From positions 32,001 to 96,000 of the IMG/VR virus record IMGVR_UViG_3300009671_000009: a stretch of DNA of 64,000 nt; one strand, written 5' to 3'. The stretch's first letter is position 1. The number at the start of each line of letters is the position of its first letter. Position numbers and translations under genes: made by a program. The notes beneath the pieces are model-generated. The model had not been told where the DNA came from, did no database searches, and saw only the letters and a list, made by a program, of their open reading frames with translations. This DNA comes from a virus. Its lineage: Duplodnaviria; Caudoviricetes. Shown in pieces: positions 47,895 through 55,673 of the stretch.

Positions 47895-48302
47895 TTGTCG
47901 TATAAGTATAAAAAGATAAGCGTTAATGGACGTAAGGTTGATGAGCATTGTTATGTAATGGAACAGAAGCTCGGAAGAAAGCTAGAGCGCTGGGAAATTG
48001 TACACCACAAGGACGAAGACAAGCTCAACAACGATCCAGATAATCTGGAGATAAAAATTAAACACACCAAATTTCATTACGATAAGGGCGATTTGCATAG
48101 ACTCACCAAAGAAGACAGGGCGAAAGCAAATGATCCAAAAGGATCAGAAAAATGCAATGCCAAGCTAAGCGAGCAACAAGTTGCATACATTAAACGAAGA
48201 ATAAGCAACGGAGAAGGAGTTCGAGCCTTGGCAAGAGAATATAACGTACACCATACACTTATATCTCAAATTAAAAGGGGCATACTTTATAAACATGTCT
48301 AA
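47895..48302 (+). CDS. HNH endonuclease (paralog of 5199..5615)
   Basis: VMEQKLGRKLERWEIVHHKDEDKLNND. Confidence 0.8.
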   Translation: MSYKYKKISVNGRKVDEHCYVMEQKLGRKLERWEIVHHKDEDKLNNDPDNLEIKIKHTKFHYDKGDLHRLTKEDRAKANDPKGSEKCNAKLSEQQVAYIKRRISNGEGVRALAREYNVHHTLISQIKRGILYKHV

Positions 48303-49046: not shown

Positions 49047-49304
49047 ATGATATTCGACTTTAATCAATTAGATACTGAGATGTGCATAATCAGTTTGCAG
49101 ATTGGCAACACAATAACACAACAAATAGAAATGCCTACAGTGTTTGCCCAATCACATTTTATGCAGCTTATTGTGCAACTCAGACAGGATCCAAGACCAA
49201 TGAAAGTGGTGTGTACCAAAGAAGAGTACACAAGAAATGGGAGAAGGTTAATAAATAGCCTAGCATTTGAGAACAAGGCATTTGTAGATTCGAACGGGAA
49301 GTGA
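49047..49304 (+). CDS. hypothetical protein
   Basis: tightly packed ORF. Confidence 0.55.
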   Translation: MIFDFNQLDTEMCIISLQIGNTITQQIEMPTVFAQSHFMQLIVQLRQDPRPMKVVCTKEEYTRNGRRLINSLAFENKAFVDSNGK

Positions 49305-49660
49305 TTAAGATGTTCAAAGCATGGGTTGACGATTGCAGACTAGCACCATTTGGGTGGATACATCTACCTAATTACAATATGACTATAAAGTTTATGATGA
49401 GAACTAAAGGCAATGTATCAGTCTTATCTCTTGATCACGATCTGGGCGAAAAGAAAACAGGCTATGACATTTTGTTATGGATGATCGATAATAATTGGTG
49501 GCCTGCCGATGAGATTAGGATACATACTGCTAACCCTGTTGGAAGAGACAACATGACCTATGCAATTAACAGGCACAGTCCATTTGTTATGAAAAGATTT
49601 GTTGAGTTCGATGAACACGGTAACGCGTTTTGGCGTTCCGTTAGAAAGGAAGCGGTCTAA
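49301..49660 (+). CDS. cyclic-phosphate-processing receiver-like domain protein
   Basis: WVDDCRLAP..SLDHDLG..TGYD..IHTANPVG. Confidence 0.7.
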   Translation: MIKMFKAWVDDCRLAPFGWIHLPNYNMTIKFMMRTKGNVSVLSLDHDLGEKKTGYDILLWMIDNNWWPADEIRIHTANPVGRDNMTYAINRHSPFVMKRFVEFDEHGNAFWRSVRKEAV

Positions 49661-50007
49661 TGGCCAAGCTTGCAAGAATAGAATACAGAGATGATACTTT
49701 TGTAAATGCTACATATCTACTGGATATTCCAAAAGATATTCCGTGGAAACTTGTAGCAACAATCGTTAATCCTATTTATGATTTTGATACACTTCCAAGA
49801 AAACTCAATGGAATGGTAAACGAACATGAGCTATCGTGGTTTGTGAATGATATCCGACGAGTGTATGTAGGGGTGTCTAACATAACAGAAGAAGGAGCTA
49901 GGCTTCCAACCACAGCCTTAACACTACAGAGAATATTCGACACTATCTGTGATAAGTTTTCTGAATTTCACAAACTGTATTTGGTTTGTGAGAAAGCATT
50001 CAAATAA
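49660..50007 (+). CDS. hypothetical protein
   Basis: overlapping TAATG stop/start. Confidence 0.55.
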   Translation: MAKLARIEYRDDTFVNATYLLDIPKDIPWKLVATIVNPIYDFDTLPRKLNGMVNEHELSWFVNDIRRVYVGVSNITEEGARLPTTALTLQRIFDTICDKFSEFHKLYLVCEKAFK

Positions 50008-50008
50008 T

Positions 50009-50135
50009 GGGGTAGATCTAGGATTCGATGGGGTTCGGTGACTGCGTGTAGATGAAAAATGCCCTTGGAGAAAACATCGATAGTAGCCATGTAGCTGGAC
50101 TTTAGACTGGGGTTCGACTCCCCACTACTCCACCA
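50009..50135 (+). ncRNA. ssrA: miniature tmRNA-like RNA (tRNA-Ala-like domain, ~40-nt internal loop)
   Basis: 5' GGGGTAGATCTAGGATTCGATGGGG, 3' AGACTGGGGTTCGACTCCCCACTACTCCACCA; G3:U70 pair, A73, helix-2 pairing. Confidence 0.75.
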
Positions 50136-50152
50136 AATAATAGGAGTTCAAT

Positions 50153-50365
50153 ATGTACGAATATACTATAACTATATCTTTAACTCTCACTCTTCCAGAC
50201 AACCCCACATTTGAAGACATCAGTAGAGCAGTTGAAGGCGATCCAGATAATGCCAGATATAAAATTTTTGAAAACTCAACGGAGAATACAAAGGTTGGAA
50301 GAGCAGAAACTCCAAACCCTTATTATAGGAACAAATCGGAATGTAGCCCAACGGCAGAGGCATAG
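50153..50365 (+). CDS. hypothetical protein (runs into tRNA-Leu)
   Basis: SD AGGAG. Confidence 0.45.
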   Translation: MYEYTITISLTLTLPDNPTFEDISRAVEGDPDNARYKIFENSTENTKVGRAETPNPYYRNKSECSPTAEA

Positions 50366-50412
50366 AGCTTAAGCCTCTAAAAGTGTGAGTTCGAATCTCA
50401 CTATTCCGACCA
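50337..50412 (+). tRNA. tRNA-Leu(TAA), short variable loop
   Basis: TAGAG-CTTAAGC-CTCTA, A73, CCA. Confidence 0.75.
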
Positions 50413-50532: not shown

Positions 50533-50627
50533 TCTATGGAGATGATTTATTATTATTTGTGCAATTTGATTTTCGTTTTGACCATTGGTACGATGGTTCT
50601 AAATGTCCTGGATTTAAGGAGAAAAAA

Positions 50628-51023
50628 ATGCCAACAAAACAAGTTATTGTTATTAGAAAAGATTTAAATATGCGTAAGGGCAAAATCGCATCTCAGGCAG
50701 CACATGCTTCTATCAAAGTTTTCTTTGATAGAATGGAAAAAGCTCCTTGGGTTTTTCCCGAGCCTTGCTATCTAACAGTAGTTACCGAAGCAATGGCAGA
50801 ATGGATAAATGGATTATTCACTAAGATTTGCGTTTATGTAGAATCAGAAGAAGAACTATTGAATCTTTATAACAAAGCCAAAGAATCAGGAATTCCTTGT
50901 TCTTTAATTCAAGACGCAGGTCTTACCGAATTTGGAGGAGTTCCTACTTATACTTGTATCGCAGTAGGCCCAGACTATAATGAACGAGTAGATGAAATAA
51001 CAGGAGGTTTACCGCTCTTATGA
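50628..51023 (+). CDS. pth2: peptidyl-tRNA hydrolase Pth2
   Basis: [52 protein letters not shown]. Confidence 0.92.
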
Positions 51024-51628
51024 ACTTAGTCCCGATGGTAGTTGAACAGAAAGGTCAAGGAGAACGTGCCTATGATATCTTCTCCAGGTTATTAAAAGAT
51101 CGAATTGTATTTATTAACGGCCCAATCTCTATCCAAATGAGCGACTTAATTGTAGCTCAGTTATTATTTCTTGATTCGGAAGAACAAGGGAAGCCTATTA
51201 ATGTATACATTAACTCCCCAGGCGGGGAGATTGTAGGTGGCATGGCGATTCATGACACAATGAAACTGGTAAAGTCGCCAGTTCATACAACCTGCCTAGG
51301 ACTAGCTGCATCCATGGGCGCATTTCTTTTAGCTTCAGGCGACAAAAGATTTGCAACTCCCAATGCAGAAATAATGATACATCAACCAAGTGGTGGCGCT
51401 GAGGGCCAAGCATCTGACATTCTCATTTCAGCCAAGCACATTCTTCAAAACAAAGAAAAGCTGAACAAACTATTATCAGATTATACAAATCAACCACTTG
51501 GACAAATAGAGCGCGACGTTGAGAGAGACTACTGGTTAACACCAGAGGAAGCAAAAGAGTACGGAATTATCGATGAAATTTTAATTCCTCAACCGAAGAT
51601 AGATTATAGAAAGTTTCAAATAAAATAA
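51020..51628 (+). CDS. clpP: ClpP protease (copy 2)
   Basis: [30 protein letters not shown]. Confidence 0.93.
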
Positions 51629-51629
51629 T

Positions 51630-51706
51630 GGGAGCGTAGCCCAGAGGCAGGAGGCAAATGTCTTAGAAGCATTTCAGGGTGAGTTCGAATCTCGCCGCTC
51701 CCACCA
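51630..51706 (+). tRNA. tRNA-Leu(TAG), short variable loop
   Basis: AATGT-CTTAGAA-GCATT, A73, CCA. Confidence 0.8.
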
Positions 51707-51721
51707 TTATATCATCTAAAG

Positions 51722-52200
51722 GTGATTACAACGAGAATAAAATATACAAAAGATATATTAGATAGACTAGCAGCTGAATGTACGTCTATGAGACAACTAT
51801 TAACAAAACTAGGTCTTGCATTCACTGGTGGAAACTACTCTCATCTTAAAAAGAGATTAGCCCATTTCAATGTAGATATATCACATTTTAAAGGACAGTC
51901 TTGGGCTAAAGGATTGCCTGGTAAGAAGGGTAAACCTTCTGATTATTTAATTTACGGTAAGGAAGTAAAGTCATCCAGGATTAAATAATATCTTATAAGA
52001 GACGGATTGAAAGAACACAAATGCGAGTCTTGCAACTTGTCTGATTGGTTAGGCAAACCTATACCTCTAGAACTTCACCACATTGATGGAGATAGAAAAA
52101 ATAATTGTATTGATAATTTACAACTTCTTTGCTTGAATTACCACGGACTGACAAACAATTATTCTGGAAAAGCCAATAAAAAGCCAGTTAAACATTGGGA
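51722..52200 (+). pseudogene. HNH endonuclease interrupted by in-frame TAA
   Basis: TAA at 51986-51988; frame continues YLIRDGLKEHKCESC..LELHHIDGDRKNN. Confidence 0.65.
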
Positions 52201-52413
52201 GATTGTTATGACCAACCTGGAAACTATCATGCAAAATAAAGGACTCGTAGAGACCGCAGTATTTAAGTATCTTGAAACAGAATACTGTCCTAAAGATTTT
52301 GGACTCATGGGAAACCCGAGTACATGTATGGGAAAATGTATTCCGTGTTGGCTAAAAGCTTTAGAATTAAAAGAATACCCCGAGGATAATTATAAACCAA
52401 AGAGGTGACAATC

Positions 52414-55598: not shown

Positions 55599-55673
55599 GG
55601 TCAAGTAGTTCAGTGGTAGAACGGAAGCCTCTAAAACTTCATGTCGTGGGTTCAATCCCCACCTTGACCACCA
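55599..55673 (+). tRNA. tRNA with CTA anticodon (amber suppressor-type)
   Basis: acceptor GGTCAAG/CTTGACC, D-arm, GAAGC-CTCTAAA-ACTTC, T-arm GTGGG-TTCAATC-CCCAC, A73, CCA. Confidence 0.8.

Follow-up and report, generated by a model that had tools for sequence, protein, structure and literature searches.

Sequence analysis of a 127-nt miniature tmRNA gene without pseudoknots in a tRNA-rich phage and of its recurrent short relatives

The 127-nt element at 50009-50135 of the DNA studied here is, judged by its sequence and base pairing, a real miniature tmRNA that has no pseudoknots, and comparison with other short genes places it in a recurrent family of mini-tmRNAs whose stems covary. The window, by which we mean the whole 64,000-nt stretch that was analysed, spans bases 32001-96000 of an IMG/VR phage record; the record is 224,466 bp long, carries direct terminal repeats and has a G+C content of 40.4%. 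The contigs carrying this phage come from bioreactor and sludge samples. No further copy of the mini-tmRNA was found elsewhere in the whole phage, which makes 50009-50135 the sole element of this kind.

Structure of the miniature tmRNA

The Rfam tmRNA model RF00023 matches 50009-50135 on the + strand over model positions 1-374 with 60.6 bits (E 3e-21 in the window), above the gathering score of 47 bits, and the match has exactly the coordinates of the tmRNA gene that an earlier note had proposed. The acceptor stem, the GGATTCGA loop, helix 2a, helix 2b, the T arm and the ACCA end all align to the RF00023 consensus, and 39 nt stand in for 286 model positions, those with the four pseudoknots and the message, in agreement with the loop of about 40 nt without pseudoknots that had been described earlier. 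The elements are arranged as follows.

50009-50135, + strand: mini-tmRNA gene, 127 nt, with tRNA-like domain, helix 2 and a 39-nt inner region
50009-50015, + strand: 5' strand of the acceptor stem, 7 pairs; G3 (50011) pairs with U (50129), the alanine identity pair
50021-50028, + strand: GGATTCGA, analogue of the D-loop without a D stem (RNA 13-20), an exact match to the Rfam consensus
50030-50038, + strand: 5' strand of helix 2a (RNA 22-30 with 87-95), partner 50095-50103
50042-50048, + strand: 5' strand of helix 2b (RNA 34-40 with 80-86), partner 50088-50094
50108-50124, + strand: T arm, with a 5-bp stem (RNA 100-104 with 112-116) and the loop TTCGACT
50125-50135, + strand: 3' strand of the acceptor stem, discriminator A and encoded CCA (RF00023 alignment and pair check)

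All stem pairs were verified directly against the sequence. The acceptor stem is formed by G1-C123, G2-C122, G3-U121, G4-C120, U5-A119, A6-U118 and G7-C117, followed by A124-C-C-A, and the G3:U alanine determinant, the D-loop region, the T arm and the ACCA end claimed in the earlier note hold up, with every pair found in the sequence. Helix 2a consists of nine pairs, five of which are G-U, and fits the + strand only. Helix 2b has 7 bp, and its 3' strand (50088-50094) contains the CATGTAG typical of tmRNAs. Both parts of helix 2 are therefore present as had been described, but not with their full pairing, because G86 pairs with either U31 or C34 and cannot serve the two alike, so that one of the two helices is one pair shorter than claimed. 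Only 39 nt separate the strands of helix 2b, the pseudoknots PK1-PK4 being missing in the alignment to RF00023, and the TAGTAG reported from this loop is located at RNA 73-78.

ARAGORN makes no call for the mini-tmRNA in the window, nor for that of locus L071, so that of the two programs suggested as a check Rfam recognises the gene and ARAGORN does not. The minimum free energy of the mini-tmRNA is no better than that of shuffles (z = 0.70), and because of this the support for the structure comes from the covariance model and the relatives, not from stability.

Inner region and candidate tag frame

The inner region contains a hairpin and a candidate reading frame:

50051-50078, + strand: inner hairpin GATG/CATC with a 20-nt loop carrying AAAAA-T-GCC-C (minimum free energy fold; GCC at 50061-50063)
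50061-50105, + strand: candidate tag frame GCC...TAG, 14 codons, product ALGENIDSSHVAGL, stop UAG at 50103-50105

The hairpin is located at the position where pseudoknot 1 begins in full-length tmRNA. Comparable hairpins, with a covarying stem of 3-4 bp and a loop holding an A-run and GCC, GCG or GCA, were observed in several other mini-tmRNAs (L071, L429, L483, L460, L332, L453, L507, L557 and the 122-127-nt MAG group), in which the GATG/CATC stem of the window is represented by AAGC/GCTT, AGAC/GTCT, CCC/GGG, GAGC/GCTC or GGC/GCC. In many of these loops the A-run comes first, then GCC, GCG or GCA, usually with C as the next nucleotide. By its sequence, the arrangement resembles what tmRNAs have at their resume site, an A-rich run and an alanine codon, and a comparable A-run/GCN context is present in the full-length phage tmRNAs found in this analysis. 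A PK1-like pairing between the GCCC/GCGC motif and upstream G-rich segments was also considered; segments complementary to the motif exist in most mini-tmRNAs, but the partner shifts its place from copy to copy and overlaps helix 2, so that the pairing is no more than a possibility.

The candidate frame starts with GCC 12 nt past helix 2b and traverses both 3' strands of helix 2. Comparison with the other mini-tmRNAs indicates that this 14-codon frame is probably fortuitous. A stop inside 15 codons is the chance expectation; in the 107-110-nt group, the common motif does not keep to one frame from copy to copy, and what looks like a stop is UAG in some members and GAG in others. With GCN taken as the resume codon, 13 of 20 mini-tmRNAs read to the 3' end without a stop and the other seven have an in-frame stop. 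As far as these alignments reach, there is no conserved tag message in the mini-tmRNA family. The TAGTAG lies in a frame different from that of the GCC, and the possible start of its frame is only 2 nt past helix 2b. UAG closes all three frames of the inner region.

Recurrence and covariation of the short form

A pattern scan that required both halves of the tRNA-like domain within a short distance of each other, combined with a covariance model (R1) built from five of the mini-tmRNAs caught by the scan, yielded about 25 further mini-tmRNAs of 98-127 nt in IMG/VR viral contigs, and others were found in metagenome contigs. R1 matches the window gene from end to end (42.6 bits, E 1e-7). In the resulting alignment, which is fitted to the model and hence favours structure, though the margin is large, 96.7% of the pair cells are canonical; shuffles give 64.3%, and sliding the partners gives 44-57%. 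Changes on both sides were observed at 20 of the 25 pairs, and 28 of the 29 distinct sequences in the alignment have the G3:U pair. All nine pairs of helix 2a changed on both sides across the mini-tmRNAs, with 95% of cells paired, and the T arm shows 99% of cells paired and compensatory changes at three of its five pairs. GG.TTCGA is invariant. MAFFT alignments of mini-tmRNAs of differing length were structurally inconsistent.

The window copy is about 50% identical to other mini-tmRNAs overall and 32-47% in the inner part, and its helix 2b abuts helix 2a directly on the 3' side, unlike in the others. By conserved pairing, it is a member of a recurrent, covarying mini-tmRNA family. The search for homologs of the same length thus found the short form in many unrelated contigs. 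The form recurs and covaries, and a one-off loss from a full-length gene, which the earlier note had named as evidence against itself, does not explain the window gene.

Several candidates were excluded from the family. L376:1501-1630, an alanine-type element of 130 nt with G3:U, a D arm and a long insert, located in a 343-kb phage, was ruled out as a tRNA-like sequence with an insert. The elements L128, L174, L188 and L228 from soil metagenome contigs, 125-136 nt in length, are closed by a long stem, GGAG.../...CTCCACCA, and contain GGATTCGAAC as well as GGTTCGA.TCC, which is T-arm-like; they lack G3:U and are a different tRNA-like RNA, caught accidentally by the pattern.

Copies in bacterial genomes

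When one genome per species was scanned with the pattern, 63 stretches were obtained, 18 of which match the mini-tmRNA model at about the mini-tmRNA length. L546 was rejected as part of a full-length tmRNA, leaving 17. Many bacterial mini-tmRNAs are 122-127 nt long and lie in Anaerolineae/Chloroflexota MAGs (contigs L581, L531, L522, L523, L579, L553, L536, L580, L541 and L532). With L546 set aside, a genuine mini-tmRNA is present in 14 searched genomes, and 11 of these carry a normal tmRNA of ~370-430 nt on another contig. Three MAG loci have ordinary cellular neighbours (a ribosome hibernation factor; RtcB; a histidine kinase and UvrA). In the Anaerolineae MAG contig L581 (2536-3810), the gene of an RtcB RNA ligase ends 40 nt before a 123-nt mini-tmRNA.

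Of 101 genomes sampled from this class, 90 have a full-length tmRNA, and a second, short tmRNA match at the strict threshold used occurs in the starting genome only. The short form is thus sporadic in bacteria, which is what one would expect of an accessory gene that is mobile. With only ~50% identity to any bacterial mini-tmRNA, the window RNA points to no particular donor or host.

Phage relatives and gene neighbourhood

The gene is stable within its own lineage. Over 6,348 compared nt, a second 224-kb assembly of the same phage shows no difference; a contig of 1115 nt from another sample differs at a single position in all, and its copy of the 127 nt is unaltered. Among the capsid relatives, those with 87, 66 and 60% identity are represented by short fragments that do not contain the mini-tmRNA region, and no tmRNA-like gene was found in 35 others at ~40% identity, of which six are genomes at least 90% complete (233-248 kb). 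Because these relatives are without such a gene, the mini-tmRNA is an accessory of this lineage's tRNA island. ARAGORN counts 24 tRNA genes in the whole genome, 16 of them in the window, and none of the 24 is for alanine. The genes around the mini-tmRNA are as follows.

49301-49660: cREC_REC protein (cyclic-phosphate processing receiver), second gene upstream of the mini-tmRNA
49660-50007, + strand: upstream ORF, 115 aa, no family; a single nucleotide separates its stop codon from the mini-tmRNA
50153-50365: 70-codon ORF downstream of the mini-tmRNA, good ribosome-binding site, no family
50337-50412 and 51630-51706: tRNA-Leu genes
50559-51023, + strand: pth2 (Pfam PTH2, 1.1e-33)
51020-51628, + strand: clpP (Pfam CLP_protease, 4.5e-73), overlapping pth2 (operon 50559-51628)

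The upstream 115-aa ORF has no relatives in IMG/VR or in a set of 5.8 billion proteins beyond the same phage. On the 3' side, the mini-tmRNA is followed by the 70-codon ORF, tRNA-Leu, tRNA-Phe and pth2-clpP, so that 424 nt, with the 70-codon ORF and two tRNA genes, separate its end from the start of pth2, and clpP lies 0.9 kb downstream. The 70-codon ORF overlaps the start of tRNA-Leu (50337) by 29 nt. HNH endonuclease genes (52007-52408 and 47895-48302) are scattered among the tRNA genes of the island, and an intact tRNA with the anticodon CUA, an amber reader, is located at 55599-55673. Wholesale recoding of TAG, which this tRNA(CUA) had raised, was ruled out; TAG terminates 20 of 123 long ORFs of the phage and is a normal stop.

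The earlier note had pointed out that the gene lies just upstream of pth2-clpP, a hint that did not survive comparison. PTH2 occurs in three of 24 records bearing mini-tmRNAs and in seven of 50 tRNA-rich control records, the controls being tRNA-cluster phages caught by the same pattern and without a mini-tmRNA; hence PTH2 is not enriched with mini-tmRNAs. Four complete phage genomes bear a mini-tmRNA and no PTH2, PTH2 lies within 3.5-4.5 kb of the mini-tmRNA in L507 and L483, and ClpP comes next after PTH2 in none of 80 related loci. A specific link to RtcB likewise found no support, RtcB being near a mini-tmRNA in only two of ~45 loci. The gene neighbourhood of the mini-tmRNA is an instance of how genes related to translation generally cluster in tRNA-rich phages.

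Phages with a related PTH2 carry a tmRNA above the Rfam cut-off in nine of the 74 records searched, with lengths of 349-404 nt (full length), 278 nt and 109 nt, and an intermediate of 221 nt is also present among the PTH2-bearing large phages. One complete 115-kb phage (L372:1501-1581, L359) has a 349-nt tmRNA and, more than 80 kb away, an 81-nt gene that consists of the tRNA-like domain only (55 bits). In the PTH2-bearing phage L334 (1501-1537), a 37-nt acceptor/T-arm minihelix with G3:U matches the Rfam tmRNA model, and an identical 45-nt 3' part ending in CCACCA was observed in three large phage records (L338, L339 and L341). Such matches of 37-45 nt may represent tmRNAs reduced to the extreme, pieces of longer genes that went unrecognised, or attachment sites.

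Expression

Contigs of three bioreactor metatranscriptome studies cover the gene with 100% identity (50018-50284 and nearby) and bridge the mini-tmRNA into the 70-codon ORF; being assembled contigs, they indicate presence in RNA libraries only, with DNA carry-over possible, and give no ends, strand or level. In the metatranscriptome and soil coverage, the tRNA-Leu genes lie in no contig, and the soil DNA run is without the mini-tmRNA gene. Promoter-like sites are at chance level (13 vs 12.9), and neither a dedicated promoter nor a terminator was found for the mini-tmRNA. Because promoter-like sites are at chance and no terminator lies 3' of the gene, the mini-tmRNA is probably released by processing of a longer transcript, as phage tRNAs are.

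Comparison with known tmRNAs

Full-length copies of tmRNA are carried by phages of the Bxz1 group and by phage G. With the canonical one-piece tmRNA (RF00023), the window RNA shares the G3:U acceptor stem, the GGATTCGA loop, the T arm, the CCA end, helices 2a and 2b with CATGTAG, and the A-rich run before a GCN codon. However, it is without pseudoknots 1-4 and the message of helix 5, and its family has no conserved frame or stop. Other phage mini-tmRNAs (for example, L071, L332, L453 and L505) have the same architecture, with the restart-like motif in many copies.

The 'TLD only' tmRNA of phage DS6A (JN698994, 28478-28560) is similar in being phage-borne, in having an alanine-type tRNA-like domain without pseudoknots, and in lacking both a conserved tag message and a phage SmpB; both RNAs probably act via host SmpB. 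The DS6A RNA is 83 nt long and scores 43 bits, below the Rfam cut-off, whereas the window RNA has 127 nt and 60.6 bits. It has a short stalk and a ~20-nt loop, and no A-run and GCC motif was seen in it, in contrast to the window RNA with its helices 2a and 2b and its 28-nt restart-like hairpin module. The alignment of the two showed no homology past the tRNA-like domain. In organelles, the CDS-less tmRNAs of jakobid mitochondria (RF02544) and the plastid forms of ~65 bp (PMC11915505) likewise have a tRNA-like part and no tag frame, and rely on an SmpB encoded elsewhere, but are mostly permuted two-piece genes without helix 2b and the hairpin module. A permissive Rfam search of 49900-50250 gave no match to the organellar tmRNA models.

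Phage tmRNAs detected by ARAGORN were found in 2.3% of phage genomes (PMC9004378), and huge phages also carry tmRNAs found by this program (PMC7162821); both surveys depend on ARAGORN, which does not call the window's gene. Within the literature searched, DS6A provides the one published message-less phage tmRNA (PMC4131195, PMC11915505); message-less tmRNAs of mitochondria and plastids are known as well (PMC11915505). No description of stalk-plus-hairpin mini-tmRNAs of 100-127 nt, which ARAGORN misses, was found in that literature. The sequence comparisons show that many phages unrelated to one another carry mini-tmRNAs of 100-127 nt in which a stalk is combined with a restart-like hairpin, and that in some bacterial genomes they form a second tmRNA-like gene.

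Possible function

RNAs with a G3:U70 pair and A73 are substrates of AlaRS, and the part of tmRNA that binds SmpB is the tRNA-like domain with helix 2a. No SmpB gene was found in this phage, nor in the 24 other viral records with mini-tmRNAs that were searched, so any SmpB involved would be that of the host. By analogy, we infer that the mini-tmRNA would be excised from a longer transcript by the tRNA-processing enzymes of the host, charged with alanine by host AlaRS through its G3:U, A73 and CCA, and bound by host SmpB. It would then compete with the full-length host tmRNA for SmpB, EF-Tu and stalled ribosomes, and degradation tagging of nascent chains on stalled ribosomes would become less frequent. 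That the phage RNA acts as such a competitor, lowering tagging during infection, has in our judgement somewhat better than an even chance of being right. In the only published experiment on such an RNA, the 'TLD only' RNA of DS6A is described as a strong inhibitor of E. coli tmRNA, perhaps via titration of SmpB (Mao et al. 2009, as cited in PMC4131195 and PMC11915505). That experiment was done in E. coli with a shorter RNA, one without the restart-like hairpin. The resume-like motif retained in the mini-tmRNAs suggests more than passive titration, and because a pure sponge would not need a conserved restart-like hairpin, more active readings stay alive. Of the functions put forward in the earlier note, the decoy fits the DS6A result and the lack of a phage SmpB, so far as the analogy goes; the short tag fares worse, its frame and stop being unconserved.

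Such a short tag would make the RNA a working minimal tmRNA, with translation resuming, once the alanine has been transferred, at GCC (50061), continuing through ALGENIDSSHVAGL and ending at the UAG stop; proteins would thereby receive a phage-specific tag, possibly for the neighbouring ClpP. The A-run, U and GCC at their distance from helix 2b are akin to those of full-length phage tmRNAs, the frame is closed by UAG, a working stop in this phage, and clpP lies nearby. Nevertheless, we regard this as quite improbable: the motif occurs in differing frames, most mini-tmRNAs are stopless to the 3' end, the 'stop' position of the 107-110-nt group varies and a stop at this distance is expected by chance; reading would also cross both 3' strands of helix 2, the end of the tag (..AGL) matches no known degron, and ClpP does not accompany PTH2 in related loci. 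A release without any tag was also considered, in which the alanine-charged mini-tmRNA and host SmpB take over the chain and the peptidyl-RNA is cleaved by a Pth-type enzyme, e.g., the phage PTH2, so that the ribosome and the protein would be freed, the protein with one extra alanine only. A tmRNA trimmed to its tRNA-like domain is reported to remain able to accept the growing peptide in vitro (Shimizu and Ueda 2006, as cited in PMC3895274), and CDS-less mitochondrial tmRNAs are presumed to assist where mRNAs are incomplete (PMC11915505). The position of pth2 0.4 kb downstream, the PTH2 genes near the mini-tmRNAs in L507 and L483, and the conserved resume-like motif, which suggests a deeper entry into the ribosome than a sponge requires, point the same way. 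This explanation is quite unlikely in our view, given that PTH2 is not enriched and that complete phage genomes with a mini-tmRNA do without it. A wider proposal would see, instead of a passive SmpB sponge, a widespread and essentially undescribed family of tag-free rescue RNAs in phages and, sporadically, in bacterial chromosomes that have a normal tmRNA too, charged with alanine, entering stalled ribosomes with host SmpB and an A-run/GCC restart-like signal and ending in untagged release; we consider it unlikely.

A decaying, functionless remnant of a full-length phage tmRNA gene is very improbable. The tmRNAs of 349-404 nt and the intermediates of 278 and 221 nt in PTH2-bearing phages suggest a reduction series, and the capsid relatives are entirely without a tmRNA, but the tRNA-like domain has kept every feature (G3:U, the discriminator A and the encoded CCA among them), the gene is unchanged across three assemblies, and the short architecture is maintained in dozens of unrelated contigs with compensatory changes. 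There is also very little chance, in our estimate, that a tRNA-shaped RNA here has another job, as a decoy for a host defence or a nuclease recognising tRNA or tmRNA, as an alanine donor or as an attachment site. The gene does lie in a tRNA island with RNA-repair-type genes (cREC_REC at 49301-49660), and RtcB stands beside a mini-tmRNA in one MAG; against this, RtcB is rarely near mini-tmRNAs, an attachment site would contain only the 3' part of the gene, and the features that are retained are those of the tRNA-like domain of tmRNA.

Biological significance

Trans-translation settles the fate of the proteins on stalled ribosomes, and phages both need it and suffer from it. The value of the window's copy, as one more member, is mainly at the family level. 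If the mini-tmRNAs block or bypass tagging, they would be a common viral handle on the protein quality control of the host, and would also offer a natural minimal system for studying which parts of tmRNA serve entry, frame setting and release. Should the reading as a tag-free rescue family prove true, they would represent a distinct route of ribosome rescue.
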